53,167 nucleotides of DNA from a virus (Duplodnaviria > Caudoviricetes): IMG/VR virus record IMGVR_UViG_3300025120_000073, positions 1 through 53,167 of that record. One strand, 5' to 3'. Positions 8,016 through 51,730 of the stretch are shown here, piece by piece. Every line of letters begins with the position of its first letter. Position 1 is the first letter of the stretch. Below the pieces are notes generated by a model. That model searched no databases, was not told the origin of the DNA, and was given only the letters and a program-made list of their open reading frames with translations. The position numbers and the translations under genes were made by a program.

Positions 8016-8027
8016 GTTCAATTGAAC
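8016..8027. repeat. dispersed palindrome, copy 2
   Basis: Exact copy, intergenic, upstream of the capsid genes. Confidence 0.95.
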
Positions 8028-9901: not shown

Positions 9902-10102
9902 TTAGCTTTCAATATATCTTTTTTCAATTTCCGATAAATCTTCTTCTATAATTCTAAAAGCTTCGTACTTTCCTGTTAGCTTGACGTAATCTTCTTGCGT
10001 TTTAGCACCGCCCTCAGCAAGAAAAAGTTCAATTGAACTTTTGTATTCAGCTATCTTACCTTTGATTACTAGAATTAATGGATCAGTCACTGGATTTATC
10101 AA
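9902..10102 (-). CDS. small hypothetical protein after the portal gene
   Basis: 66-aa helical ORF overlapping the portal end; contains a palindrome copy encoding SSIE. Confidence 0.7.
   Translation of the reverse strand: MINPVTDPLILVIKGKIAEYKSSIELFLAEGGAKTQEDYVKLTGKYEAFRIIEEDLSEIEKRYIES
10027..10038. repeat. dispersed palindrome, copy 3
   Basis: Exact copy extending to a 20-bp palindrome; in a CDS as SSIE. Confidence 0.95.
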
Positions 10103-18424: not shown

Positions 18425-18436
18425 GTTCAATTGAAC
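18425..18436. repeat. dispersed palindrome, copy 5
   Basis: Exact copy between a terminator and the VWA gene RBS. Confidence 0.95.
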
Positions 18437-20638: not shown

Positions 20639-21538
20639 ATGAGTAATGATGAAAAAAAACCAACGATAGGTAATCGTATGGGGTTTATTGAAACTATTAA
20701 TGACACCTTAACTCTTTATAGAGGTTTGCTAGAACCTAATCATCGTGGATTTAACAATAGAAGCGACTTATCTTTTGATGAGAAGATGCTTATGAGAAAA
20801 TCAATTGAGGATCTTAAACGTGCAGATCTATATTTTATGCACGAGGATTTTGCAGAAATACTGACAGACTATGGAGATCAATTTGATGGAATTGATTTTC
20901 CTGAAATGCGTTTCAGTGAATTTACCAGACCATGTTCAAGAGTATGTTACATGCGTATTAATCATCTTACTAACCTTATACTAGATAGTGAAAATAAAGA
21001 TAAATCCGTAGCAAACTATGGCTATATTACTGAGTATTATGAAGACAAAACAACCGCTATCACCTTGGTTGCGCCATTAACTGCGCCAAGACCAGTGGGT
21101 GCTTATCATCCTGATCGTGGTATTTATATGCCAGAAAATACACCAGAGGAATTTTACGAACCTTTTGCGGGTGCATGTTTTTATATCGCAGGTGCTTTTG
21201 AGTTAATCAACAATCCTAAGTTTGTCATATCTAAGGCGGCAGGGACTAGAGCGCAAAGAAAACAAATGAAGCGTGAGCAAGACATACCTTTGGAGGCATG
21301 GCATCAAATTGCATGGAATGTAGACGATGAAACAATTGAGGTAAACGAAGTAGATCGTGGTGGATGGCATATGCCCCTTCACTACACTAGGGGTCATACT
21401 CGAAAAGCTGAACCGCATCACAAAAACGTGATGTATAAAGATGGCAAACCATACAAATGGATACACGGCTTTTGGTCTGGTCATCCTGCGTATGGAATTA
21501 AGAAGGGGTATCATGCCCCTAAAATAACTGCGGCATAA
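20639..21538 (+). CDS. hypothetical phage protein with C-terminal HxxRGHxR motif
   Basis: Start moved to MSNDEKK (GGGAG RBS); HYTRGHTR..KWIHGFWSGHP. Confidence 0.75.
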   Translation: MSNDEKKPTIGNRMGFIETINDTLTLYRGLLEPNHRGFNNRSDLSFDEKMLMRKSIEDLKRADLYFMHEDFAEILTDYGDQFDGIDFPEMRFSEFTRPCSRVCYMRINHLTNLILDSENKDKSVANYGYITEYYEDKTTAITLVAPLTAPRPVGAYHPDRGIYMPENTPEEFYEPFAGACFYIAGAFELINNPKFVISKAAGTRAQRKQMKREQDIPLEAWHQIAWNVDDETIEVNEVDRGGWHMPLHYTRGHTRKAEPHHKNVMYKDGKPYKWIHGFWSGHPAYGIKKGYHAPKITAA

Positions 21539-21549
21539 GGAGAGAAGTA

Positions 21550-21747
21550 ATGAAAAGATTTTATGTGGAATTAAAACGTCATACCCGAAGCATATCAAGC
21601 TCTGAAAGCCTTGATACATGGGCTGAAGAAAAATCTGAATTTGTTTACATTATGGCGTATCATAGAGATCAGATTGTAGACATGCTTGGCGATGAATATT
21701 TTATCGTTAAAATAATTGAGAAGGAGATAAGTGAACGTGGCTACTAA
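21550..21747 (+). CDS. small hypothetical protein
   Basis: AAGGAG RBS; tightly packed operon. Confidence 0.7.
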   Translation: MKRFYVELKRHTRSISSSESLDTWAEEKSEFVYIMAYHRDQIVDMLGDEYFIVKIIEKEISERGY

Positions 21748-21925
21748 AGTTGGAGACACTGATTTAGTTCAGCGTGGCATTCTAATCAGTAAGTATATTG
21801 ATAATGAGTGTGATGAGCGAGAAAGAATACAAGCAGAATTTCTCATAGATAACGATGACTGGTGCAACAAAGTTTATGTACAACAACTTATCGCTCAAGC
21901 CAGACTTGAGGAGTATTTTATCTGA
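21731..21925 (+). CDS. small hypothetical protein
   Basis: AAGGAG RBS, GTG start; packed operon. Confidence 0.65.
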   Translation: MNVATKVGDTDLVQRGILISKYIDNECDERERIQAEFLIDNDDWCNKVYVQQLIAQARLEEYFI

Positions 21926-22131
21926 TGGAATATTGGACACTCTTAACGATAGGATACAACGTCCTTGATAATATGATGTATGTCAGCATCTGGTTTCAAA
22001 ATGAAAAGGATTGTTGGAGCGTACTTATGAATAGCGGTACGCTCTACGATCAAATCAATGCCGAAATGGGTTACTGTGATGTAAGCGAGGTCGCATCGCA
22101 TGTAGTGAGGCCTAAAATCAGACCTTGGTAG
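21925..22131 (+). CDS. small hypothetical protein
   Basis: TGATG overlap; two Cys; C-terminal VRPKIRPW. Confidence 0.7.
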   Translation: MEYWTLLTIGYNVLDNMMYVSIWFQNEKDCWSVLMNSGTLYDQINAEMGYCDVSEVASHVVRPKIRPW

Positions 22132-22140
22132 GAGAAGTAA

Positions 22141-22311
22141 ATGCCAAAATATAAAGTAACCGCCACATGTGATGTGGGATATGCCGCTGTTATCGAAGCC
22201 GATACCGAAGAAGAAGCTTGGAAGATAGCAAAAGGTGACTGTGAAGCGGATTGGGAGCAAACCGATCAAGGTCACGACTGGACAGTAGAAAACATTTGGG
22301 AGATAAAATGA
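22141..22311 (+). CDS. 56-aa acidic hypothetical protein (not in the ORF track)
   Basis: MPKYKVTATCDVGYAAVIEADTEEEAWKIAK...; AGGAG RBS; fills the gap. Confidence 0.75.
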   Translation: MPKYKVTATCDVGYAAVIEADTEEEAWKIAKGDCEADWEQTDQGHDWTVENIWEIK

Positions 22312-22527
22312 ATGGGATATGAGCAGTTAACCATGTTTCAAGCCAGTCAATTGAAATGGTTAAAAAGACAGGTGGATAATCTCGCGGATGAAAGCAGACG
22401 AAGTGATGCTAGGCCGCGAATAGAACAGGAGCTTTTCGCCGCGCGTGAGGAGCTTGATGATTATGTTGAAAATTTAAAGCAATCAGGTATTGCAATAGAA
22501 CATGGGAGAAGATCATGGCTATATTAG
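22312..22527 (+). CDS. small coiled-coil hypothetical protein
   Basis: 71 aa in a packed operon. Confidence 0.7.
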   Translation: MGYEQLTMFQASQLKWLKRQVDNLADESRRSDARPRIEQELFAAREELDDYVENLKQSGIAIEHGRRSWLY

Positions 22528-22847
22528 CTAAAGCAAAAGGCACGGTTTATGCCAGTGAAGAAGCAAGAATAAAACTAGAGGTTTTGTACAGACAAGGTTG
22601 GATGGAACAAAATAAAAAAGACGCGGCTTTAAGGCCCGAATTAAGAATAAGGTCTCATTTCAAATCTGATAAAGTAATAAAAAGATCTCAGTCACCAAAA
22701 AAACCTCAATTACCAAAACAGGCAAAAATAGTTAATAACATGTTGTCTGAAGGAAAATCACCTAGGCAGGTAGCTAAATCTTTATATGAAAATATAAAGT
22801 ATATCAGTAGCTTAATAACTAAATATAACCTTCCTACAAGAAAATAA
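22515..22847 (+). CDS. basic protein with possible C-terminal HTH
   Basis: IVNNMLSEGKSPRQVAKSL resembles an HTH; last gene of the early operon. Confidence 0.6.
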   Translation: MAILAKAKGTVYASEEARIKLEVLYRQGWMEQNKKDAALRPELRIRSHFKSDKVIKRSQSPKKPQLPKQAKIVNNMLSEGKSPRQVAKSLYENIKYISSLITKYNLPTRK

Positions 22848-22893
22848 AGCGCACCTACGCAAATTAAACGAATCATGTGTTATGTTGTAAATA

Positions 22894-22999
22894 AGATCCG
22901 TTTTTTGCAGGAGATAAATTATGCCTCCACCATAATTATGCGTAAGCTATGAGTGCGCTGAGGGCGAACTGAACATGTGAAATGACGAACAGTCCTTAA
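22894..22999 (+). other. RBS followed by a chain of five minigenes (MPPP, MRKL, MSALRAN, M, MTNSP)
   Basis: AGGAG at 22909-22913; ORFs 22921-22935, 22938-22952, 22949-22972, 22975-22980, 22982-22999. Confidence 0.5.
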
Positions 23000-23041
23000 C
23001 CATAGCAGTAAGAGCCTGAACCTTTACTGGTGATCTTACAC

Positions 23042-23070
23042 TAGGGGAGAAGTATCAGCCTTCTCCCCTA
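23042..23070 (+). terminator. strong hairpin ending the plus-strand transcript
   Basis: TAGGGGAGAAG-TATCAGC-CTTCTCCCCTA, 11-bp perfect stem; weak U-tract. Confidence 0.7.
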
Positions 23071-23080
23071 ATTTATAAAA

Positions 23081-23092
23081 GTTCAATTGAAC
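23081..23092. repeat. dispersed palindrome, copy 7
   Basis: Exact copy between two convergent terminators. Confidence 0.95.
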
Positions 23093-23121
23093 AAAAAAAA
23101 GAGGTGGCGCGAAGCCACCTC
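23093..23121 (-). terminator. intrinsic terminator (minus strand)
   Basis: GAGGTGGC-TTCGC-GCCACCTC plus T8. Confidence 0.85.
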
Positions 23122-23186
23122 AGATCCGTTCAGAGCAGGATTATCGTCAGTTCACAACAAGCGGAAGTGAAAAACAAATGTCCTGA
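23093..23186 (-). ncRNA. candidate ~90-nt antisense small RNA
   Basis: Lies between its own promoter (23192-23220) and terminator; 5' GUCAG/CUGAC stem; carries UCCUGC-N4-AACGGAUCU complementary to 22894-22912. Confidence 0.55.
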
Positions 23187-23191
23187 CACAA

Positions 23192-23220
23192 GATCTAGCA
23201 CTCGCACATATTAACGTCAA
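23192..23220 (-). promoter_or_regulatory. sigma70-type promoter for the candidate sRNA
   Basis: TTGACG-N17-TAGATC with an extended -10 TG. Confidence 0.6.
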
Positions 23221-23369
23221 ACACTTTTGTTTAGTTTGTCAGACAAATCTTTTATAAGATTTAGAGTGGTTCTTATATCTAGACGTATAACCTCTACTTC
23301 TTTTCCTTTTGAATAAACGTGTAAATTCACACACTTATCACCCTCTCTTGCAGTAATGTACTTGCTCAT
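23217..23369 (-). CDS. 50-aa hypothetical protein (not in the ORF track)
   Basis: MSKYITAREGDKCVNLHVYSKGKEVEVIRLDIRTTLNLIKDLSDKLNKSV; ATGA overlap with the helicase stop. Confidence 0.65.
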   Translation of the reverse strand: MSKYITAREGDKCVNLHVYSKGKEVEVIRLDIRTTLNLIKDLSDKLNKSV

Positions 23370-25138
23370 AAGTCAATATCCAAATCTAAATCATGTGCTA
23401 TTGACGCAACACTTGTCGCGTAAGGTAGGTTGTATGTGCTTGTGGGGCTATCAAAAGATAGCTCAGTATCACCCTGCTTTCCCGCCCAAGAGAAGCGGCA
23501 TTTCCACACAATTATTTTTGATAAAGAAGAATGTACAGGATCAGGTCTGTGTACCGTAAGGCCAACATCAGCCTTAGCAAACCAAGCGGCTGACCCAGAT
23601 ATGTCATACCCTTTCGGGGCAGGTACTTCTCCATTACTATCACGCATCATCTTTGTTGGGTGTGCCACAAACCATAGATGTATCCCGTGCGCTTGTGCAA
23701 AAACTCTTAATCGTGTCAAAACATCTGATACCCATTCTGTTTCAGAAGTATCTGATTTATCCTTCTGAATATAATTATAAGGGTCAATGATTGCTCCCCT
23801 TATTCCATGCCGTAAAACGGCAACCTTCAATCGCTCGATAATGCTATCAACAGATGATAAAGTTCCATCAGCTTGATAGAGAAAAGAAAAGTTCGATTGA
23901 ACAAATTGCTTTCCCCCCTCCATTTCTTCTTTTGTCATTCTTGGTGTTTTACCATCAAAGAAAGGCAGTCGTAAAAACTTACTTATCAGCTTGGCAATGT
24001 GTATTCGTGGCTCGTTTTCGAAACTGCAAATTGCAAACTTCCATCCCTCACGCTCCGCCAAGTTTACCATTAATTGATCTATAAATTCTGATTTGCCAGA
24101 GCTTGGGTGACCAGTCACTACCGTAAGTTGACCCTCAACAATTGAATACAATTCGTCTACATTTTTGTAGCCAGTTGATACACCTGAACCCACCCCTTTC
24201 TCATAGATCTCATCAACGTCCTCAAAGAAATGCTTCGCGTCAAAAAGACCTGCAACAGGCCAAGGTGACGCCCCAGTAATCAGGCTATCCACACCGTCTT
24301 TACCGTGCTTCAATAAGACATCGTTGGCGTCCTTACAGCCCTCTGGATAATGAATTTTAAAAACTTTATCCTTACCAATGCGCCTTGCAATTTCTTCAGC
24401 CATAGCTTGACCTGCATCATCAGCGTCAGTTGCGATTATAATTTTTCCTGCCTCATCAATTTGCTTCTTCGCGTTCCATAAGAACTTGAATTTATTATCT
24501 TCTTTCGGATCAACTTGATTTTCGGCAACCTTCATTACTGCACCATTTGGAACAGAAACAGAGCTTGTATACCCTGATTCGATAAGTGCCAACGCATCCA
24601 TTTCTCCTTCGCAAATTATAAGATCTTTGCCTTTCTCAACGTTATCAATGTTAAAAAAGGTTTGAGGCGCACCGTTGCAGGAAAAACCTTTTCCTTCAAT
24701 CGATCTAATTTTTTGAGCGTAATCTTCACCCTTATTTGTGTATGGAAAAAGTATACAATCAACTTCTGCTTTAGCAGATTGTATATAATTTTTAGCGTAT
24801 TTTAGATTTACTTTTTTGGCGGTCTCTTCCGAGATGCCCCTGTGACGCAGAAAGCTTATCGCGTTCTCGCCAAGTGGAGATGTCTCAATTTTTTTTGCAA
24901 CGGACACTACTTCTACCCTTCTCTGAGCTTTGATTTGTGGTAACTCATCACGCAAAGGAACAATGCCGTTCATACCGCAGTGCCAACAATGGTACAGCGC
25001 CTTATCGCCATCTATCCTAAATGATAAAGTCTTTTCGTTTTTCTTTTTGCGGCTGTGACCACAGCTTGGGCATGATATTTTATATTGACCTTGACCTAAC
25101 CTGTTAGCTTCACCGCGCAGTTCTTGTTCTACTTGCAC
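23366..25138 (-). CDS. Twinkle/T7 gp4-like DNA primase-helicase
   Basis: Zn finger CPSC..CWHC; TOPRIM CEGEMD and DADDAG; KDAND; Walker A GHPSSGKS; IIDPYN, VAHPTK, YDISGSA. GTG start at 25138 preferred (AGGA RBS). Confidence 0.92.
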   Translation of the reverse strand: MQVEQELRGEANRLGQGQYKISCPSCGHSRKKKNEKTLSFRIDGDKALYHCWHCGMNGIVPLRDELPQIKAQRRVEVVSVAKKIETSPLGENAISFLRHRGISEETAKKVNLKYAKNYIQSAKAEVDCILFPYTNKGEDYAQKIRSIEGKGFSCNGAPQTFFNIDNVEKGKDLIICEGEMDALALIESGYTSSVSVPNGAVMKVAENQVDPKEDNKFKFLWNAKKQIDEAGKIIIATDADDAGQAMAEEIARRIGKDKVFKIHYPEGCKDANDVLLKHGKDGVDSLITGASPWPVAGLFDAKHFFEDVDEIYEKGVGSGVSTGYKNVDELYSIVEGQLTVVTGHPSSGKSEFIDQLMVNLAEREGWKFAICSFENEPRIHIAKLISKFLRLPFFDGKTPRMTKEEMEGGKQFVQSNFSFLYQADGTLSSVDSIIERLKVAVLRHGIRGAIIDPYNYIQKDKSDTSETEWVSDVLTRLRVFAQAHGIHLWFVAHPTKMMRDSNGEVPAPKGYDISGSAAWFAKADVGLTVHRPDPVHSSLSKIIVWKCRFSWAGKQGDTELSFDSPTSTYNLPYATSVASIAHDLDLDIDL

Positions 25139-25210
25139 GTTATTTCCTACTCTGATCCGTCTAGCATAGATTTCAGAGTGCCAGTCAGTCAAGCCACTAA
25201 ATTTAGTGGT

Positions 25211-25306
25211 TACCCCTATATATAAATACTATATAATCTCTCTCTTAGAGAGAGAGATATATTATATATATATTATATATTAATTATATTATTTATATTA
25301 CACGCG
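25211..25306 (-). repeat. AT-rich element with (TC)n/(GA)n palindrome, copy B (inverted relative to copy A)
   Basis: Minus strand reads CGCGTGTAATAT..(TA)n..palindrome (25236-25258)..AGGGGTA. Confidence 0.8.
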
Positions 25307-29550: not shown

Positions 29551-29562
29551 GTTCAATTGAAC
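29551..29562. repeat. dispersed palindrome, copy 9
   Basis: Exact copy; supplies the TGA stop of the giant gene. Confidence 0.95.
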
Positions 29563-32500
29563 TCTTTTAGCAAAACATTGGCTCTTTTAGTTAGTTTTTG
29601 TTTTGCTTTATCTAATCTGTCTAGTAACTCTTTTTTCTTTTCGTCAGTAAGAGTTCTGCTATCCCTAACATTATTTATTTGACGAGAGATCTTACGCCTT
29701 TGATTTTCTATCTGTCTAATAATACCTATAAATCGTATTTCATCTGCATAATCAGATCTAATTTTGGCTACTGCCTCTGAACTACCTGATTCAGATGCGG
29801 CCTTAAGTTCGTCCTTGGCTATAAGTATTTTGTCTCTTTTCTCTAGGTAGTCACCAAGGTCTTCTCTTGGAGAAACACTGCTGTATATTTTTCTAGTAAA
29901 CGGTATAGATCGATACAGTTCTTCCTGTAGTCCATCACCAGAAAGTTTGGTTGGCAACTCTACCGTTCTCTGTGCGAAGCGTCCGATACCACCAGTTATA
30001 TATTCAAACCAAAACTCTAGAACATCAGGAGATACATCTACAAGACCACTGCTTGCCGATGATCCTCCTGTTAAAGAGTTTACATTATCAGCAATCCATT
30101 TAGCAGAGGGTGATGTCGTAGACCAATATAGTTGAGAAGAAGGAGTTCTATCGCCCGGAAAGCCTTCTTTAAATACTGGTTTTCCTGTAAAATCTTCATT
30201 ACTTATTATGTCTATAAATGGGTCAGCTATTGTAGGAGCAACAGCATTATCTATGCCGTAATCCCAGATACCACCTATTGGGCTAAGAGTATCAATGGTT
30301 GTGCCAACTATAGAGTTACCTGCACCTTTTAGATCTGTGCCGCCTCTCGCAAGTTGGCTCATAGCTCTGCCAACATTATGAGCCATATTTAATCCGTATG
30401 GCATTGGGATAGATATGTATCCTCTTTCAGAGAAAGGGTTCATAATAATAAAATTATGCTCTAGCACATACTCAGGTATTTTATCATATGTTAGCTTACC
30501 ATCTTCGCCCTCATCTGAAAGAAGGCTGTTAAGCTGATCTTGCAATACACCTGCCGCTATAATGCCTAACCAAATCTGTTGTACTTTCTTTGATCGAGTG
30601 GCAGCATTTAAAAGTGCAAATGAACCTTGTAGAGATGCATTGTAAAATAAGTACCAAGCATTCATTAGTGATCTGTACTCACCACCTTTAGAGAAGTTAA
30701 CAGTGACACTTCCTGCAGCTTGAGCTGCACGTTCTCTGTTATACCCCTTATCTAACAAAGCTTTATAGGTTGCGACACGAACACCATTCTCAACGATAGT
30801 GTTGTAGTCTTCCATAAACTGTAGAAGTGATTTTCCTTTGCCTAAGAATTTTTGTTTAACAATTCCAAACTTACCCTTTTGACCTGCTTCGCCAATATCT
30901 CCTATAATACCTCTTAAATTGTTCATCTGATCAGCGATTGTGTCCATTTGGTTGGTAGCGTTTTTACCACCTGCTTCCACAAAATCTTCGTATATCTTTG
31001 ACCATTCTAAATTAGATTCAGGATCAGTTTTAGACTTTGCAAAAATTGGGGTTGATCGTATAGATTTTTCAATTCCTCCAAGAGCAGGTCTGACACCTTT
31101 TAGTATAGCCTTTGTCATACCTTTTTCTTCGTACTGATTTACGTTTACACCTGCTGTACTAAGGTCTCGTAAAAAGTTGCTAACAACAAACTCTGGGTTG
31201 TATGATGTGTTAATGTTTGAAAGGTATCTGTTTACCTTCAACATACCCCTGTTAATTATATTCATACTAGCAGAGCCAAGACCACTGCTTCCCTTCATAG
31301 CTTTAGCTATTTTTTCGTCTTCGAACCTAACGTATACATCAGCACCGTTTTCTTTAACTGTCATGATCATAGGATCTTGAGCGGCATTAAAGTCAGGGCT
31401 TTCTTTTGTTACTGGCCTACCGTCAGACATGACGGTTCTTCTTTGAGTTGGGATACGATCTAATATTTTAGCATAAACACCAGTTTTCTCAGTATCTGCC
31501 CGCAGAAGTTTTAGGAAAGATTGACCAACTAAATTTTTCTCTGATTTAACAACTGAGTTCTGGTTTTGAGCTATCGTTGTAGCAAAAATGTCTGTGGCGT
31601 ATTTATACCGACCAAGGGCCGTTGGGTCTTGCCTACCTTTTCCCCCAAAAGATCCACCAAGAGAAGCACCAAGTCCTATGTCTTGCTCGTTCTCTGGGTC
31701 AAAAACACCCCGAAGTGGGACATAATTCTGGTAATTTGTAAATTCTATAAACTCTTTTGGAATTAAACCTGAATCAATTCTAACTTTGTTTGTATCTTTA
31801 ATTATGCTTTTTACAGCAGTGCCGAAATTAGACACCGTTGTTTTATTTTCTGCATTGAGACTGTTGAACCAATCTAATATTGCATCTGCCTCACGATCAG
31901 ACATTGCAGACCCTTCAGGATTATTAGAGTCTTTGTTGGCTCGAATGTATGCGTTTCTTTCTTTTGCGTGACTGGCATATAAATAAATATCTCCCAGCGC
32001 TAGAACTTTGTTTTTTGAGCTTTCTATAGCTTGTGAGACAAAACCTTTACCATTAGCAGCGCTATCAGAAATTCTTTGTAAATTATTAATTTCTGCATCT
32101 GTTACATTTAACTGGTTTAGTGCGTCAGTGGCATTCTTATAAATGCCTTTCTCTCTCTTGAGTAATTCATTTGTAGTTTTACGGTGATACAATTCCTCTT
32201 TTAGGTAAGTATCCATAGCATCAACAATAGTAAGGCCTTGTTCTTTTAGCTCTTGTATCATTCTGCCTACGGGCAGGAAGCTATCTTGAAACCTTCTAAG
32301 TACTTCGTCAGCGGCCTTCTGCGCCCTGTCTGCAGGTAATGCAATCCTGAATGCTTTTCCAATAAAATCTGCTGATCGAGCATAGTTTTGATAATACTGT
32401 TTTTCTTGTATTTGATTTGGCAAACTAGCAGGGTTTAAGCTGTATTGAACTTTACCATTTCTAATAGCCCTGTCTTCTGGTTGTATGTTTGCGTAGAAGG

Positions 32501-35500
32501 TTTTTACCTCAAAAGCACCATTAGGAGCCTCTCTGTCTTTAACTAGAACCAATGTTAAAGGTGGAGATACCTCTGGTGTGTTTCGTGTCCATTGTAATAC
32601 AGCAGTGGGTCTTCCGTTATCTATCTCGGTAGAAAGCTCAACTCCCTCTGGATCGCTTTTAAATCCCTGACGTTTAAATTTCTCAAGGATGTCTATAATT
32701 GCTTTTTGAACTGGTCTTGGGTACTTACTATAGTTGGAGTATCTCTTAAGCTCTCCTTCGTGTCTTCTATCTAAAATGTGCCTAAGCCCAGTGCCAACTC
32801 CTATTCCAGATACTTCTGTATTTTCCCCTGCTCGAAGAAACACTGGTTTTTTATTTATAAATCCATGAGCATTAGATCTTATATCATCGGGATCGAGATC
32901 AGGTCTCTTCATAATTGTCTTAGGCTCTATGTTACCTAAAGAAAAAGATGTAGATTCAACAGCTTGAGTATCTGATGTAAGGTCTTCAATTATTTGTGCT
33001 TGTTGTTCAGTAAAAGCGGAAGGTTCAATTGAACTTTCTTCTTTTGCTACTGCAGGATCAATGTCTTTTGTAATATTTGTATCAGCAAAATTTATTATCT
33101 TATCTGGTGAAAAATCACTTTCAACTTCTTCTGCACCATTAAAGTATTTAAGTTCTGCTCTTATACTTGGAACATCAAACTCTGAACCAACAGCAACTCT
33201 TGTATTACCTTCTATTATATAAGGCTGTCCTCTGTGATTAACTCCAACCACGATGGCACTACCACCGTACTGACCATCTGCTTGTTCAGGATCAAATCCT
33301 TCTTTAGAAACTTTTTCTCTAAGAGCTTGATACCTTGCATCTGATCCAGATCTAACCTCATCATTTGCTCCAGTTAGAGTACGAAGAAAAGATGTTTTTA
33401 TAAATAAAGGTTTTTTCTCAAAATCCATTCCCATAACAGCAGTTATTGGGCCAGTTAAAAGTTTTCCAACAGCACCATCAGGATCTCCTGCAGCAGCTTC
33501 TTCTGCTATTTTTTGTTTTCTTAAAATATATTCTTCGTTACCATCTCGAACTGATGGATTGTCTTGTCTGTAGCCAAACTTTTCACGAGCTACTATAAAT
33601 CCTTCTCTGTCTGCTGAGGTGAGCCTTGATCCTGTTGTTGCTTCGGAGCCGAGGCTGTATCTTCTGTCGAGGTCTGAGTTCCCTCTTCTAGAGGCGTCCT
33701 TGCTTTTTCCAGTCCTCTCATCGCTTCTAAGAACTGAGCCATTGGATTTTGCATCTTCATACTCCCTTGCTAATTTATCTACAGAGCCTCTGTCTATTTC
33801 ATCAACCCTTTCAAACCAAGGGATGTCGGCTCTTGACGTTACTTTAAAATTACCTTGTTTAAATATACCTGTTTTAGAATTTTTTCTACTAGCGTCTTTA
33901 GACATAACACCAGTAAAATCTTTAAATGTTTGAGGTGTCATGTAAACCACATCACCATCTGACAAAGGATATTCTACAACAGTGGCGTTTGATCCTTTTA
34001 GGTATGTCATGTTTGATGAGAAAGTATCTGTCTTACCTTCAGTGACCCTAGTTCCTACAGTCTTTCTGTCTATGATTGCTTTCAAGGAGCCGTGATTAAC
34101 AACCTGCTCTCCTTCAATCACCCAAGTCTCCCAGTGGAACCTGCCTAGGGAAGCATCATTTGGTCTTCCAACTAATTCATAGGCTTTATTAACATTCTTA
34201 CGCATACCATTTTCAAGCATACGAGTAACAAGAATACCTTTTGGGCCTCTAAATATTCCGTTAAGACCTTCACCATTTGGCCCAATGCCATCATAAATAT
34301 TAGCTCCACCGTATCTGCCATCATCCCATAGGTGTCTGCCTTGTATTCTGTCCATCACAAGAACATCATCTTTACCTGCAACAAGAAGAATAAAGGATAA
34401 TACTTTATTATCTATTCCTGCGCCTTCTGTGTTTGAAAGAAATGTTTCTCTTATATCAGACGCTAAAACATTCTGATCTACCATTTGTTCATGAACTAAA
34501 TCAAGAGTTGTTCTGTTTGTGTTCGGAATCATTTGTGACATTGCAGAAACTAATTTAGCTGCTGCGTTTACGTTCATAGTAACTTGTTTTCCGGGTGAAC
34601 CTTCAGGAATTGCCGTGGAAACTTCAAGCATCCATCGATCAAGATCATCATCCGTCAAAGGTTCACGAACAGCTTTCTCTAACAATGGATGAGCTTGATC
34701 AATTACATCTATGTATGCTGACTCTTGTTGAACTGGCCCTGCGCCTCTTGAAAGTATTCCCCAGATAAATAAATCCAAGGTCATTCTAGGCGTAGCGTTA
34801 CCGCTGTTATATATATTTTGTAAATCTTTTACATGACCAAAGCCTTCATCCACACCCTTTCTTAACTCTGGCGTAAGAGCTTTAAGCTTCTCAGCCATAG
34901 CTTCGGGTGAAGAACTATACTGTATAGCAACAAGGGGTGGAGCAGGAATATATTCACCACCGAAAGCATCTTGCATTGCGTCCATCCAGTTTTCTACAGA
35001 ATCTGTAGCGTTTGGATGTTGCTCTAAAATTTGTTCAATTGAACTATTATTTCTTTCAGCATTACCTCTGTTGTACTTTTGCGTAATCTGTATGGTTTCT
35101 GGTCTGCCCGAACCCTCTATCAACAATTCATGCGGTAACTTATGCGCTCTAGAGCCATCTGGAGCAAACGGAAGCTTGGGAGTGAAGTTTTTAAGTGAGA
35201 AAGCTAACGCCTCAGACTCAACGTCAGCTTCTGGGTCTCCAAAATCTCTATTTAAAATCATTTGGAAAGGCTTCTTCTCAGATGAGATGATGCCTCTAGC
35301 CCCTATGTTTCCGCTTCTGATATTATCAAATATATCCTCTACACTAGATATACCTACATCGTTATTGCTTTTGACTATACTGACAAAGAAATCCTTGATG
35401 CGCTGCATAAGTGTTCGAGGCTTGCCAGATAGTTTGATTTTATTATCCGCGTAATCTCTAAACAGCTCTGCCACTGACTCTTCTTCGATAGTGGCCTCAG

Positions 35501-38300
35501 ATGAACCCAAACCTTCATACATAGATTTAGATCTATCGTAATAAGAATATTTTCTTTCTGTTGGAACGCCATCTTTTACAGCGACATACTTTTTAGCTTT
35601 GGCAGCTTTTACTAATGATGCGTATTCTTGCTTTGTAAATAGCCCAAGATTTTTAAGAGCGTGTATAACCTCATGGTTCATTATACCTTTTAGGGCATCG
35701 AACTGCTCTTGCGCTGTTGCGTTAGGATCAACAGCCTCCATAGCTAGAGATATAACTCTGTTACCATCCTTGGCATCAAACTGACCCTCTGGGTCTACAT
35801 GAACATCTTGACCATTGATGTTTACAGTTCTAGCAAGAGTTTTTTCTGCTGTTAAAGCAACATCTCTAAGTCCAAGCCTTGTAAGACGTTTTCTTAAAGC
35901 GTTGAATACCTGTTGTTCTTTCGCTGTGAAGACATCGCTTTTTCTTCTGTTTAGTGCCAGATCAGCAACCGTTCTAGCTGTCTTGGCTTGCTTGGCTTCA
36001 GGAGCTATTTGCACTGGAGATGATGGAGCGTCTATCTTAGACTGAGCGGATTTAATAAAGTATTTTAATCTTTCTACATCGTTCTCAAGCTCTTTTATTG
36101 CAACCTGATCAATTTGAGGCACAGGTGCTTTTCTAGCTTTTAGTCTACGAAGCATTTTACGCTTTTCATCAAGCTCTGCTTTTCTATTATCAACGCTAGT
36201 TTGGAGAGCTTCTCTTTGACCCTGAGTTGTTTCCTGACTTTCTATCGCTTGCTTTTCTTCGGATGATAGTACTCTTGGTCTCTCTGTAGCAGGAATTGCT
36301 TGTCCTTGAGGATCTGTCTCAATTTTCTTTTCTAAATCAGTAACAGTCTTTTCTGCTCTGGCTATCTCACCTTCAAGTGAGTCAGCCTTAGCATTTAGCT
36401 GTCGAGCCTTTCTTACATTATTCTCTACTTGTTGCGCTCTTCTAGCATCCTCAAGAAGTTTCTTTCTGTAAGATCTTAGTCCTAATTTTCTTGATTGAAA
36501 CTCTTCATCAGTTTCGTTCTCTGCTTTTTTCTTAGCAGTTCTTTCTCCATCCAGTACTGTCCTGATATCATTGACAGTTTTTCTGTATGATGCCGCTTCA
36601 TCGAAAGAAGATTCGACATCTGCTTCAACAACGTACCCAGTCCTAACTCTATCAGATTTACGCAATAAGCCACGGCTTACCATCTCATCTCTGACATCAA
36701 GAACCATTTGTCGTGGCACCCTTTTTAGGCCTGTAGCCTTCAAAGCTTTTTGCACCGCGTTAAAAGTGTATTTCTTCTGAGCCTTAACCTCTTGTACGGC
36801 ACGGTCGTATTGCGATTGTGTGAAGCCTTTACCGCTAATTGGGCCGAAGTGTGCTGCACCGCCCCCTAGAGGCTTCTGCTTCCTTACTTCTCTATCAGCA
36901 ACATCTTCGCCAAGAACTCTTCTTATTTCGTCTACTGAAACAGGTGCTGTAGGATCTACTCCTTGTGCGTTTCTAGAATTTCTAATTCTAGTCTGCTCAT
37001 CTAGTGCCAAAGTTGACAGGTCTACTGGTATAAGCGGTAGTGTGGTTTCTCTAGCCGCTTGCAGAAGTGCCATCTTCTCTTCGTCAGTTGATAGCCTATT
37101 GTTATCAGCGGGTGGAGCCATTGATTCAATCTGCAAAGGCTGCTCATCAAGTCCTGCTAATTTCTTTACTTCCGCTTGCTTTTCTTCTAACTTTCTTTGC
37201 TCTTCTTCAGGATCTATTACTAAATCCTCATCAATCATTACTTTTGATTTGTTTACTTCTTGTACTTTAACAAGAGCTTGCTGTCTTGCTTCCTCTTGAT
37301 CTTCTTGAAGCTGTCGAGATTTTTCTTCTTCTTCTTTATTTTTATCTCTAACTCTTTGATCACCTGCTACTATATTAGTGCCGCCACGAACAGTACCACC
37401 AACAATACCTGCGGCTATAGCGACATCATAATAAATTTTTTGTGCCTCTTCATCAAATAAAGGCAAGCCTGCTTGGTATCTGTTTATAATTTCTTGACCA
37501 ACTTCTGATGGAATTTCTGCGACAGTACCAAGACCAACCCCTTTAACTCCACGAGTAAATATTCCACCACTTGTACTAAATGATTTTGAAATAATCCCAC
37601 CAACAAGTAGTCTGTCTATAATTAAATCTAAACCTGCTTGAGGAAGTGAATAAAGAAAAGCCGCGCCTTCATCTATTTCTGTTTTAATCCCTCTATCTAT
37701 TGCATCCTTTTGAGCTTCTCTGTTATCGCCATAAAAATAAGGAATGTTAGCAGCCAAACCACCAATTATAGCACCTGCACCAGTTCCGATAATGGGAATA
37801 AACGAACCTGCCACTGCACCTGCGGCAGAACCTCCAAGTGTAGACCCAAGGTTTGGAAGTTGTTGCCCAAGAGTTTCTGTGTAAAATTTTGCGTAGTCAC
37901 CAAATGTTTCGGCATCTTCTAGTTGTGTAAAGCCTTGAGCTTTTTCAGCTCTTTCTCTTTCATTTTTTTCAACAACATCAGCACCATAATTTTCTAGACC
38001 CTCTAGCCCAGTTACACTTCCTAATCCTTCTATAGATGACCCATATGCAGTTTGAAGAGCGTCAACACCTGCGCCTACAGCCTTACGAAACCCACCCTCT
38101 TCTTGAATAGGAACTTCTTGAGGAACATCCTCATTAGTTCTTTGACCGAAATAGTAATTGTAAGATTGTTTGTAGGGCTGCTCTTGCTGTGTAAGAAAGC
38201 TGTCTATCTTTTGCTGTTCTGCAGCGGTTGGTGTATCACCTGCTATTTGAACTGAGTATGCTTTACCTGAGAATTGACCTTTTTGTTGGATAACGCCCAT
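29553..38300 (-). CDS. giant internal-virion/ejection polyvalent protein with C-terminal LPD38-like domain
   Basis: 2915 aa, last gene of the ejection cluster; Gly-rich hydrophobic N-terminal helices; HEVIH zincin motif; EGNTR ParB-like segment; GLRHI segment; IPMPYG..FTGKPV..VSPDVLE C-terminus. Confidence 0.8.
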   Translation of the reverse strand: MGVIQQKGQFSGKAYSVQIAGDTPTAAEQQKIDSFLTQQEQPYKQSYNYYFGQRTNEDVPQEVPIQEEGGFRKAVGAGVDALQTAYGSSIEGLGSVTGLEGLENYGADVVEKNERERAEKAQGFTQLEDAETFGDYAKFYTETLGQQLPNLGSTLGGSAAGAVAGSFIPIIGTGAGAIIGGLAANIPYFYGDNREAQKDAIDRGIKTEIDEGAAFLYSLPQAGLDLIIDRLLVGGIISKSFSTSGGIFTRGVKGVGLGTVAEIPSEVGQEIINRYQAGLPLFDEEAQKIYYDVAIAAGIVGGTVRGGTNIVAGDQRVRDKNKEEEEKSRQLQEDQEEARQQALVKVQEVNKSKVMIDEDLVIDPEEEQRKLEEKQAEVKKLAGLDEQPLQIESMAPPADNNRLSTDEEKMALLQAARETTLPLIPVDLSTLALDEQTRIRNSRNAQGVDPTAPVSVDEIRRVLGEDVADREVRKQKPLGGGAAHFGPISGKGFTQSQYDRAVQEVKAQKKYTFNAVQKALKATGLKRVPRQMVLDVRDEMVSRGLLRKSDRVRTGYVVEADVESSFDEAASYRKTVNDIRTVLDGERTAKKKAENETDEEFQSRKLGLRSYRKKLLEDARRAQQVENNVRKARQLNAKADSLEGEIARAEKTVTDLEKKIETDPQGQAIPATERPRVLSSEEKQAIESQETTQGQREALQTSVDNRKAELDEKRKMLRRLKARKAPVPQIDQVAIKELENDVERLKYFIKSAQSKIDAPSSPVQIAPEAKQAKTARTVADLALNRRKSDVFTAKEQQVFNALRKRLTRLGLRDVALTAEKTLARTVNINGQDVHVDPEGQFDAKDGNRVISLAMEAVDPNATAQEQFDALKGIMNHEVIHALKNLGLFTKQEYASLVKAAKAKKYVAVKDGVPTERKYSYYDRSKSMYEGLGSSEATIEEESVAELFRDYADNKIKLSGKPRTLMQRIKDFFVSIVKSNNDVGISSVEDIFDNIRSGNIGARGIISSEKKPFQMILNRDFGDPEADVESEALAFSLKNFTPKLPFAPDGSRAHKLPHELLIEGSGRPETIQITQKYNRGNAERNNSSIEQILEQHPNATDSVENWMDAMQDAFGGEYIPAPPLVAIQYSSSPEAMAEKLKALTPELRKGVDEGFGHVKDLQNIYNSGNATPRMTLDLFIWGILSRGAGPVQQESAYIDVIDQAHPLLEKAVREPLTDDDLDRWMLEVSTAIPEGSPGKQVTMNVNAAAKLVSAMSQMIPNTNRTTLDLVHEQMVDQNVLASDIRETFLSNTEGAGIDNKVLSFILLVAGKDDVLVMDRIQGRHLWDDGRYGGANIYDGIGPNGEGLNGIFRGPKGILVTRMLENGMRKNVNKAYELVGRPNDASLGRFHWETWVIEGEQVVNHGSLKAIIDRKTVGTRVTEGKTDTFSSNMTYLKGSNATVVEYPLSDGDVVYMTPQTFKDFTGVMSKDASRKNSKTGIFKQGNFKVTSRADIPWFERVDEIDRGSVDKLAREYEDAKSNGSVLRSDERTGKSKDASRRGNSDLDRRYSLGSEATTGSRLTSADREGFIVAREKFGYRQDNPSVRDGNEEYILRKQKIAEEAAAGDPDGAVGKLLTGPITAVMGMDFEKKPLFIKTSFLRTLTGANDEVRSGSDARYQALREKVSKEGFDPEQADGQYGGSAIVVGVNHRGQPYIIEGNTRVAVGSEFDVPSIRAELKYFNGAEEVESDFSPDKIINFADTNITKDIDPAVAKEESSIEPSAFTEQQAQIIEDLTSDTQAVESTSFSLGNIEPKTIMKRPDLDPDDIRSNAHGFINKKPVFLRAGENTEVSGIGVGTGLRHILDRRHEGELKRYSNYSKYPRPVQKAIIDILEKFKRQGFKSDPEGVELSTEIDNGRPTAVLQWTRNTPEVSPPLTLVLVKDREAPNGAFEVKTFYANIQPEDRAIRNGKVQYSLNPASLPNQIQEKQYYQNYARSADFIGKAFRIALPADRAQKAADEVLRRFQDSFLPVGRMIQELKEQGLTIVDAMDTYLKEELYHRKTTNELLKREKGIYKNATDALNQLNVTDAEINNLQRISDSAANGKGFVSQAIESSKNKVLALGDIYLYASHAKERNAYIRANKDSNNPEGSAMSDREADAILDWFNSLNAENKTTVSNFGTAVKSIIKDTNKVRIDSGLIPKEFIEFTNYQNYVPLRGVFDPENEQDIGLGASLGGSFGGKGRQDPTALGRYKYATDIFATTIAQNQNSVVKSEKNLVGQSFLKLLRADTEKTGVYAKILDRIPTQRRTVMSDGRPVTKESPDFNAAQDPMIMTVKENGADVYVRFEDEKIAKAMKGSSGLGSASMNIINRGMLKVNRYLSNINTSYNPEFVVSNFLRDLSTAGVNVNQYEEKGMTKAILKGVRPALGGIEKSIRSTPIFAKSKTDPESNLEWSKIYEDFVEAGGKNATNQMDTIADQMNNLRGIIGDIGEAGQKGKFGIVKQKFLGKGKSLLQFMEDYNTIVENGVRVATYKALLDKGYNRERAAQAAGSVTVNFSKGGEYRSLMNAWYLFYNASLQGSFALLNAATRSKKVQQIWLGIIAAGVLQDQLNSLLSDEGEDGKLTYDKIPEYVLEHNFIIMNPFSERGYISIPMPYGLNMAHNVGRAMSQLARGGTDLKGAGNSIVGTTIDTLSPIGGIWDYGIDNAVAPTIADPFIDIISNEDFTGKPVFKEGFPGDRTPSSQLYWSTTSPSAKWIADNVNSLTGGSSASSGLVDVSPDVLEFWFEYITGGIGRFAQRTVELPTKLSGDGLQEELYRSIPFTRKIYSSVSPREDLGDYLEKRDKILIAKDELKAASESGSSEAVAKIRSDYADEIRFIGIIRQIENQRRKISRQINNVRDSRTLTDEKKKELLDRLDKAKQKLTKRANVLLKEFN
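33023..33034. repeat. dispersed palindrome, copy 10
   Basis: Exact copy in the giant gene as SSIE. Confidence 0.95.
35033..35044. repeat. dispersed palindrome, copy 11
   Basis: Exact copy in the giant gene as SSIE. Confidence 0.95.
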
Positions 38301-42634: not shown

Positions 42635-42646
42635 GTTCAATTGAAC
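42635..42646. repeat. dispersed palindrome, copy 13
   Basis: Exact copy just upstream of the GGAG RBS of the ejection cluster. Confidence 0.95.
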
Positions 42647-51718: not shown

Positions 51719-51730
51719 GTTCAATTGAAC
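51719..51730. repeat. dispersed palindrome, copy 14
   Basis: Exact copy just upstream of the AGGAG RBS of the tail fibre gene. Confidence 0.95.

Follow-up and report, generated by a model that had tools for sequence, protein, structure and literature searches.

The window analyzed here, a stretch of 53,167 bp, corresponds to a single IMG/VR virus record (IMGVR_UViG_3300025120_000073) that is classed as linear and 89% complete, and our analysis centered on a gap of 370 nucleotides (nt) that separates two convergent genes, a 110-amino-acid (aa) open reading frame (ORF) on the plus strand and a 50-aa ORF on the minus strand. A predicted small RNA (sRNA) gene lies on the minus strand next to the 50-aa ORF and shares its terminator with the operon of a primase-helicase, and a predicted convergent RNA of ~185 nt, which we call RNA-2, reads on the plus strand from 22894 to about 23078. 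Comparisons with related phages indicate that the sRNA is far older and more widespread than RNA-2 with its minigene and that its conserved, co-varying predicted target is the leader of the primase-helicase mRNA. The features of the sRNA gene and of the primase-helicase gene are as follows, with coordinates in the window and SD denoting a Shine-Dalgarno sequence.

23215 to 23220, minus strand: -35 hexamer TTGACG of the putative sRNA promoter, read from the sequence; it overlaps the TGA stop of the 50-aa ORF, and TTGAC is present in all 41 distinct cassettes of relatives
23192 to 23200, minus strand: extended -10 element TG-C-TAGATC of the same promoter, read from the sequence; relatives keep TA at the first two -10 positions, with a spacer of mostly 17 nt
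23093 to 23186, minus strand: predicted sRNA of ~92-95 nt, with a putative 5' end and a single copy in the window
23122 to 23140, minus strand: sRNA seed (box 2, minus-strand reading UCCUGCUCUGAACGGAUCU), with computed pairing
23093 to 23121, minus strand: intrinsic terminator common to the sRNA and the primase operon, from the terminator scan, with a hairpin at 23121-23101 and a U-run at 23100-23093
23217 to 23369, minus strand: 50-aa ORF between the primase and the sRNA promoter, from the ORF list
23366 to 25138, minus strand: primase-helicase gene, with a probable true start at GTG 25138-25136
25145 to 25155, minus strand: predicted pairing site of the sRNA within the primase leader, UCAGAGUAGGA, where the seed forms 11 bp including one G-U pair; it includes the SD AGGA at 25148-25145
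25163 to 25192, minus strand: primase-helicase promoter TTGACT-18 nt-TATGCT, flagged by the promoter scan and conserved in relatives

A preliminary description of this locus, made from the letters alone, had claimed a minus-strand unit with a promoter TTGACG-N17-TAGATC, a terminator, and no plausible ORF. We found both signals where they had been placed, the promoter at 23220-23215 / 23197-23192 and the terminator, a strong one, as a hit of the terminator scan at 23121-23101 plus a T-run. A consensus scan missed the promoter since the final base of its -10 is not T, but the -10 is extended by a TG one base upstream and the element is kept in relatives. The absence of a plausible ORF also held, as ORFs of 25 and 22 aa are not conserved, and a coding reading of the cassette fails because length differences among relatives are not whole numbers of codons. 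We likewise rejected as a coding sequence the 15-aa frame that follows AGGA, which relatives do not maintain. The predicted RNA folds with -30.1 kcal/mol (z of -3.49; 0 of 200 shuffled sequences equally stable), and in the window the UCCUG part of the seed is paired with a 5' CAGGA and the remaining seed is free.

A search of IMG/VR with the primase recovered 80 loci, one at 99% and the others at 63-73% amino-acid identity, and cassettes were counted over 81 loci with the window included. Automatic parsing found an sRNA cassette after the primase or its small ORF in 63 of these loci, and inspection added six (L043, L048, L050, L052, L058, and L071), giving 69 of 81. The 41 distinct cassette sequences, 99-151 nt in length, follow one plan in which TTGAC and a spacer of mostly 17 nt precede a -10 beginning with TA, followed by a variable hairpin and a CU-rich stretch, with a GC-rich hairpin and its T-run at the end; those of nearer clades also share the 5' stretch UUGUGUCAGGAYAUUG, for which we found no convincing target in the window. 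Terminator hairpins in relatives (29 distinct, 8-12 bp) differ in sequence with complementary changes in the two arms, and a T-run follows each of them. RNAalifold on a MAFFT alignment of 17 sRNAs returned 5 pairs only, and the middle hairpin and the loop lengths vary. A metagenome pattern scan produced 15 loci, 14 of which were relatives; L098, a microsatellite-rich contig without a cassette that matched the pattern by chance, was dropped. Together, these observations support the minus-strand unit 23220-23093 behaving as a real, conserved small-RNA gene, whose transcription and 5' end we infer. It has no counterpart at gathering score in Rfam within 21500-24500 of the window (the best match, AniS, reached 19.2 bits against a gathering score of 50), and five relative loci gave 0 matches. 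The AniS, GadY, and Ref66 matches, being far under threshold, were treated as chance.

The start of the primase-helicase had to be placed before its leader could be defined. The TTG at 25192 that opens the 608-aa primase ORF belongs to the -35 hexamer of the primase promoter, and tblastn alignments of many relatives begin at residue 19 of this ORF. The GTG at 25138 is preceded by an SD 6 nt upstream, and relatives carry ATG or GTG at this place; the first 18 codons of the 608-aa ORF (25139-25192) are probably untranslated. Because the promoter occupies 25192-25163 and the GTG start is at 25138, the primase leader is only ~20-25 nt long. In the window, the sRNA stretch UCCUGCUCUGA pairs with the leader sequence UCAGAGUAGGA through 11 bp with one G-U pair, using seed positions 23140-23130. 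The sRNA gene is on the same strand as the leader and 1.9 kb away from it.

Across the relatives, the seed and the primase leader co-vary over about ten sequence types, of which examples are given here by locus.

L007: leader AUCAGAGUAGGAG, seed CUCCACUCUGAU
L008: leader AUAGAGUAGGAG, seed CUCCACUCUAU
L033: leader GAUCAGAGUGGA, seed GUCCACUCUGAUC
L056: leader GUCUUGGGAG, seed CUCCCAAGAC
L067: leader GUUCUAUGGAG, seed CUCCAUAGAAC
L082: leader GUUCUUGGAGGA, seed UCCUCCAAAGAAC
L043: leader AUCGAUAGAGAGGAG, seed CUUCUCUAUCGAU

RNAduplex joined seed to leader in every one of the 30 distinct combinations, giving duplexes that total 13-22 bp. Cognate duplexes had a mean of -22.9 kcal/mol versus -15.8 (standard deviation of 1.3) for permuted partners, with 0 of 20,000 permutations as good among 12 clade representatives, and flanks taken without the SD/anti-SD core still paired through 6.7 nt versus 3.15 (standard deviation of 0.73) for permuted partners, again with 0 of 20,000 among 11 representatives; as sequences within a clade are related, these permutation counts are inflated and are not true probabilities. 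Because the flanks outside the SD core still pair, the co-variation signal is not a trivial match of CUCC to GGAG. When whole loci (~5-10 kb, both strands) were scanned, the primase leader was the best candidate site in 7 of 12; it took second place in L047, third place in the window, and fifth place in L008. The locus thus combines two marks of trans-encoded sRNAs, a terminator and a seed whose complementarity to a translation-initiation region is maintained by co-variation. These comparisons suggest that the conserved job of the sRNA is most likely repression of primase translation.

The convergent strand of the gap carries the features of RNA-2.

22878 to 22886, plus strand: candidate extended -10 element TG-T-TATGTT of RNA-2, read from the sequence and not flagged by the scan, with a putative 5' end near 22893/22894
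22894 to 22912, plus strand: box 1, which spans the predicted 5' end of RNA-2 and its SD region and can pair with the sRNA seed
22909 to 22935, plus strand: SD AGGAG (22909-22913), then 7 nt, then the mini-ORF ATG CCT CCA CCA TAA (22921-22935), which reads Met-Pro-Pro-Pro-stop in 15 nt
22946 to 23075, plus strand: structured 3' domain of RNA-2, with P1 at 22946-22966/22991-23006, P2 at 23008-23013/23034-23039, and a terminal hairpin at 23042-23070 (extendable to 23037-23075)

The 19-nt box AGATCCGTT-N4-GCAGGA, reported earlier to occur twice on the plus strand, is present exactly at 22894-22912 and 23122-23140 and nowhere else in the window even at up to 2 mismatches; these 2 matches compare with 0.04 expected, and 0 of 100 shuffled sequences had 2, a significance that is overstated as the pattern was picked post hoc. 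The predicted pairing of 9+6 bp over the SD was reproduced, with seed positions 23140-23135 and 23130-23122 pairing with box 1 in a duplex that has 16 bp when flanking pairs are included and a computed energy of -25.9 kcal/mol (shuffled leaders, -11.9 with a standard deviation of 2.9; 0 of 500 as good). In the window, no site within +/-4.6 kb ranks above box 1 for the seed. Nine loci, the window among them, carry the structured domain of RNA-2, and the leader with a box-1 equivalent and the mini-ORF is present in 7 of these 9 (the window, L091, L099, L093, L102, L100, and L101). Pairing of the RNA-2 leader with the sRNA was computed at 16 bp and -21.4 kcal/mol in L093 (7 of 500 shuffles as good), at 19 bp and -24.7 kcal/mol in L101 (0 of 500), and at 27 bp and -34.7 kcal/mol in L100 (0 of 500), where changes on both sides lengthen the duplex to the start codon; shuffled RNA-2 leaders overall gave about -12 kcal/mol (standard deviation of 3). 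One arm of the duplex changes in a compensatory manner, from AACGGAUCU with AGAUCCGUU in the window to AACAGAU with AUCUGUU in L093, L100, and L101 (G-C to A-U), and in phages without the RNA-2 leader the same arm reads AACGAAC in L089/L094 and UAAUAC in the L046 group. The joint change of the two boxes in homologous loci, which the preliminary description had suggested as a check, was therefore seen across four sequence variants, and box 1 is deleted in L044 and L088, two relatives that closely resemble the window at this locus.

The candidate -10 of RNA-2 is conserved as TG-G-TATGCT in L093, L100, and L101 and belongs to the type found in the primase promoter; the RNA-2 promoter motif CGAATCATGTG has no second copy in the window. 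The RNA-2 leader also aligns with the primase leader through the first two codons (AGAG-x-AGGA-xx-TA-x-C...xTG CAA), and by this alignment it looks like a copy or mimic of the primary target of the sRNA. In the 3' domain, RNAalifold identified three helices with 33 pairs, 5 of which show compensatory changes, and the G-U pairs favor the plus strand (-43.3 kcal/mol versus -39.4 for the minus strand). The structure is 100% conserved between the window and L044, whose adjacent ORF is 65% identical. The preliminary description had placed a palindrome between two convergent terminators. This stood for the palindrome GTTCAATTGAAC at 23081-23092 and for the minus-strand terminator; the plus-strand hairpin at 23037-23075 exists, but its U-tract is weak and the terminator scan does not list it.

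Several further observations concern this part of the gap. The 3' domain (22946-23075) has about 98% DNA identity in L044 versus 65% protein identity for the neighboring gene, and weak, diverged homologues of the domain occur in L047 (6029-6173) and L052, in clades without the leader or an obvious promoter. A promoter-like block GCGAATCAT(G/A)TG(T/G)TA upstream of the RNA-2 leader is found in tandem, ~80 nt apart, in L093, L101, and L102 and once in the window. L093, L100, L101, L102, L089, and L094 have an extra element of ~100 nt that is absent from the window, comprising a long hairpin GAGACAAGTGG ... CTTGTCTC and then TTTTAATT; it sits between the palindrome and the RNA-2 hairpin, or replaces RNA-2, and may be a further small-RNA module in an intergenic hot spot. 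GATC, a Dam-type site, occurs in the sRNA -10 (23192-23197), the seed (23123-23126), the primase leader target (25154-25157), and box 1 (22895-22898). The copy in the -10 is not conserved in other clades, and coincidence is possible.

The mini-ORF of RNA-2 is the only start-NNN-CCN-CCN-stop sequence on either strand of the 53-kb window. In 717,726 nt of related loci, the start-X-Pro-Pro-stop pattern was found 14 times, and those that have an ATG and an SD stand at the homologous place in 6 of 6 cases. Relatives read ATG CAA CCA CCT TAA or ATG CGA CCA CCT TAA at this site, so that the length and Pro-Pro-stop are kept. It is four codons long and is the only frame with an SD ahead of it. The earlier suggestion of a 'minigene array' did not survive, as the further frames sit inside conserved, co-varying RNA structure without an SD, and their translation is unlikely. 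The hairpin at 23042-23070, which has 2 co-varying pairs, begins ~107 nt past the mini-ORF stop, and none of the short frames at the locus encodes a small hydrophobic toxin protein.

Type I antitoxin RNAs are complementary to the translation-initiation region of a neighboring gene, and the two genes are adjacent and convergent. The sRNA and RNA-2 resemble such a pair in being convergent neighbors in which an antisense-acting RNA covers the initiation region of its neighbor (16-27 bp computed in four variants). What stood of the earlier description of a type I toxin-antitoxin-like pair is a conserved sRNA gene with a seed complementary to the RNA-2 leader and SD, and this complementarity is kept through sequence change in relatives. 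The pair is not a classical type I system because it lacks a small hydrophobic toxin protein, and it departs from that class in two other ways: most relatives conserve the 'antitoxin' but have no 'toxin', and the 'antitoxin' has a different target that is conserved, the primase leader. Since L044 and L088 keep the sRNA but lack box 1 and the mini-ORF, the comparison indicates that the sRNA and RNA-2 are not an obligatory addiction module. The label 'type I toxin-antitoxin' is therefore only partly right.

The earlier remark that no described equivalent was known is outdated, as an RNA toxin with a proline-codon mini-ORF was described in June 2026, repressed by a CRISPR-Cas system (CRISPR, clustered regularly interspaced short palindromic repeats) rather than by an sRNA. 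In that preprint (bioRxiv 10.64898/2026.06.02.729485), the 'proline-codon toxin' CreT, from type I-F CRISPR loci of P. aeruginosa, consists of an SD, a 15-nt mini-ORF with two Pro codons before the stop, and a stabilizing hairpin, all required for toxicity, and only a 15-nt spacer before the hairpin was tested. Haloarchaeal CreT RNAs (PMC8501985) sequester tRNA and use consecutive rare codons. RNA-2 shares with the P. aeruginosa CreT so described an SD, a 15-nt ATG-X-Pro-Pro-stop, and a downstream stable hairpin on a small RNA. It differs in that CreT belongs to a bacterial cas locus and has its transcription repressed by Cascade with a CRISPR-like guide, whereas the candidate regulator here is a base-pairing sRNA in a phage; the hairpin here is ~107 nt away, and toxicity of RNA-2 is hypothetical. 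A repeat search of 22000-24000 found no CRISPR-type repeat spacing, the remaining window not having been searched for cas genes.

Considering these results together, we regard it as probable, from the co-variation and the computed pairings, that the sRNA controls the primase-helicase via its leader and that RNA-2 is a genuine pairing partner. Several observations weigh against this interpretation, in addition to the inflated permutation counts. No cassette was seen in 11 of the 81 loci in the DNA examined, and one locus was too short. The primase leader fell outside the top five sites in L040 and L060, the longest gap-free run of pairing had a median of 8 nt in 36 distinct pairs versus 6.5 for shuffled leaders and reached at least 10 nt in 8 of 36 only, and many seed/leader duplexes require a 1-nt bulge. 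The primase site of the window (-22.3 to -25.1 kcal/mol) is no energetic outlier, and several sites in coding regions score alike. On the RNA-2 side, the variants number only about four, a clean deletion of 78 nt (window positions 22855-22932) has removed the leader from L044 and L088 although their sRNA is almost identical and the seed the same, and none of 16 wider relatives has a seed-complementary site on the convergent strand. The box pair is also a direct DNA repeat that duplication could explain, and if the -10 of RNA-2 were not TATGTT but TAAATA or TAAGAT, the transcript would start downstream of the 9-nt arm of box 1.

If the sRNA acts on the primase leader, RNA-2 could be a toxin or a sponge, and we consider these two roles roughly equal within that interpretation. 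As a sponge, RNA-2 would be a primase-leader mimic that titrates the sRNA and relieves or times primase repression, the mini-ORF being incidental or serving ribosome loading only; we hold this tentatively. The alignment of the two leaders (L101 GGATCAGGAGATAAC versus primase GGATCAGAGTAGGAAATAAC) is consistent with such a decoy, as are the 27-bp duplex of L100, which extends far beyond what SD masking needs, the stable structured 3' domain with its hairpin, which would suit an abundant RNA, and the dispensability of the element, lost in L044 and L088. It leaves the conservation of Pro-Pro-stop unexplained, and the element is not found in the wider family. A CreT-like toxin, in which the mini-ORF would stall ribosomes and the sRNA would act as an SD-masking antitoxin in a module attached to a pre-existing primase-control sRNA, is in our view rather unlikely. 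Its architecture equals that of P. aeruginosa CreT as the preprint gives it (SD, 15-nt mini-ORF with two Pro codons then stop, downstream hairpin), the mini-ORF is the sole one of its kind in 53 kb, Pro-Pro-stop and the 15 nt are kept in CCT CCA CCA, CAA CCA CCT, and CGA CCA CCT with a synonymous change in the last Pro codon, the pairing over the SD is kept in all variants, and, as is typical of accessory modules, some phages have it and near-identical ones do not. Against this stand the small number of variants, three in all, the hypothetical nature of growth arrest by RNA-2, a hairpin ~107 nt downstream, the lack of a hydrophobic peptide that sets it apart from classical type I systems, and the harm that global translation arrest would do to a lytic phage as well. 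The start of the mini-ORF also resembles the primase start (xTG CAA) and may be a remnant of a duplicated primase leader. Because the sRNA persists without the 'toxin' in L044, L088, and dozens of phages without the mini-ORF, an antitoxin function would not be its primary role.

Two other explanations would do without a trans-acting sRNA and its RNA-2 partner. In one, which we judge improbable, the primase mRNA reads to the common terminator and its 3' end folds onto its own SD for autoregulation or stabilization. No terminator separates the primase from the cassette, and a full-length primase mRNA would therefore carry both partners; in relatives without the small ORF, the cassette begins 2 nt past the primase stop. 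A TTGAC -35 and a TA-containing -10 at a fixed distance upstream of the seed, with coding overlap or without it, would go unexplained without a transcript start, and the cis and trans modes are not mutually exclusive. In the other, the boxes are DNA sites of a regulatory protein (direct repeats at 22894 and 23122 with an inverted partial copy at the primase promoter) or match by chance, and for this we see very little likelihood. Complementarity to an RNA from the opposite strand equals a direct DNA repeat, so that box 1/box 2 co-variation alone cannot discriminate the two, and the genome clearly does contain a repeated DNA motif, a separate palindrome. DNA sites are nonetheless unlikely because every copy is in the sense strand of a predicted transcript, at the SD, where it follows the promoter instead of covering it, because a promoter and a terminator hairpin invariably flank the partner, because the primase duplex of the window has a G-U pair that is a pair in RNA but a mismatch in a DNA repeat, and because the motif is wholly different between clades with complementarity kept. 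Chance is excluded by the same permutation and complementarity tests.

Under control of the primase-helicase through its leader, transcription of the sRNA would start at its own promoter, with the 3' end of the primase transcript as a possible second source. The CU-rich, single-stranded seed of the sRNA, directly 5' of the terminator hairpin, would pair with the primase leader across the SD, and this pairing would block ribosome binding, leading to less replication protein as the sRNA accumulates. The repressive outcome that we infer would slow replication in a dose-dependent manner, much as copy-control RNAs do in plasmids, and every physiological role proposed here is conditional in the same way. 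In the sub-lineage of the window, the seed would also pair with the extreme 5' end and SD of RNA-2, in which the leader with the mini-ORF precedes a structured domain of older origin, and the sRNA would repress RNA-2 or be titrated by it.

DapZ and MicL are sRNAs that come from the 3' end of an mRNA and have their own internal promoter. The sRNA described here likewise has its gene at the 3' end of a coding operon, with a common terminator and its own promoter; it differs in that it is predicted to target the 5' leader of its own host operon. Plasmid antisense RNAs control the translation of replication proteins, as CopA of R1 does at the repA leader and RNA I of ColE2 at the leader of the Rep primase mRNA. 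As in those systems, a small terminator-ended RNA here pairs with the leader or ribosome binding site (RBS) of the mRNA for the replicon's own replication protein, and dose-dependent negative feedback would be expected. CopA and ColE2 RNA I are antisense to their targets and fully complementary, whereas the sRNA gene here is on the same strand as its target, 1.9 kb away at the other end of the gene, and the pairing is 11-22 bp (11 bp in the window) and often bulged, as in trans-encoded sRNAs; the replicon here is a phage.

Small RNAs are also reported to govern the replication of a marine plasmid family (PMC3035462). Among phage RNAs, c4 RNA of P1/P7 and sar RNA of P22 mask the RBS of ant mRNA, according to the accessible text of a 2025 review (PMC12197685). 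These are alike in that a phage small RNA represses translation of a phage gene by pairing around the RBS, and in the same text the target of c4, as for the sRNA here, is not its own antisense strand. Their targets, as presented there, are antirepressor genes of temperate phages and concern immunity, whereas the predicted target here is a replication enzyme. Thus, RBS-masking phage RNAs and plasmid copy-control RNAs are known, and a trans-encoded sRNA directed against a phage's own primase-helicase leader was not found described in the literature searched, including the accessible text of the 2025 review, in which the word 'primase' does not occur.

Few phage sRNAs have known targets, and nearly all of these come from temperate coliphages or a few model phages. 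Here, the target is readable from co-variation in dozens of environmental phage genomes, which makes the proposed replication brake testable by reporter fusions. A more far-reaching proposal, to which we give only limited credence, is that a large, uncultured family of marine phages throttles its own replication by a trans-acting sRNA from the 3' end of the primase-helicase operon and that in one lineage a CreT-like RNA that stalls ribosomes, derived from a copied primase leader, has come to be wired to this sRNA. If true, one riboregulator would couple phage DNA replication to a translation-arresting RNA, and a phage-borne RNA toxin would be under sRNA rather than CRISPR-Cas control. Were the Met-X-Pro-Pro-stop RNA active, proline-codon RNA toxins would extend from CRISPR loci to phages and sRNA control, and the locus would show how such a module can originate by copying a regulated leader.

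The remaining features of the gap and of the window are the following.

22515 to 22847, plus strand: 110-aa ORF, without a PHROG or Pfam family
23081 to 23092, no strand: palindrome GTTCAATTGAAC between the convergent terminators, with 18 copies in the window at up to 1 mismatch

The window phage is tailed, with an SU10-type portal, terminase, and capsid genes, and its replication and recombination block encodes an ATPase, an HNH endonuclease, the primase-helicase, a RusA-like resolvase, an exonuclease, and an Erf-like protein. No DNA similarity of the window to cultured phages, near or distant, was detected. The primase-helicase is annotated as DnaG/twinkle-like in its best phage matches, and because the best of these has only 35% identity, the phage is without an annotated relative. 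In bacterial and archaeal genomes, the top primase match has 37% identity and is in mixed metagenome-assembled genomes, which gives no inference on the host. Neither the 110-aa nor the 50-aa ORF belongs to a family in PHROGs or Pfam, and ARAGORN found no tRNA or tmRNA. The only match of the 110-aa ORF in IMG/VR is on the L044 contig (65% identity), and an ORF similar to the 50-aa ORF is present in several relatives and missing from others, in which the sRNA promoter comes straight after the primase stop. At least half of the sampled words of 22700-25300 occur in 14 DNA sequencing runs, whose records name the organism as a marine, estuary, seawater, or viral metagenome or by a code (organism A); six RNA runs contain 0.08-0.37 of these words, which indicates neither expression nor which part matches.

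The interval from the RusA-like gene to the primase includes, upstream of the primase promoter, an AT-rich stretch at 25194-25290 that contains the inverted repeats TCTCTCTCTTAGAGAGAGA (around 25236-25258) and CCACTAAATTTAGTGG (25209-25194) and could be a terminator or an origin-like region. The structural region includes a single ORF of 2915 aa at 29553-38300 on the minus strand. The palindrome GTTCAATTGAAC has 14 exact and 4 one-mismatch copies in the window versus 0.2 expected, at sites that include 1473-1484, 8016-8027, 10027-10038, 18425-18436, 23081-23092, 42635-42646, and 51719-51730, and it could be the binding site of a regulator or a weak bidirectional terminator. Its copies are mostly between ORFs, often with A-runs and T-runs at their sides, and many related loci have copies as well.

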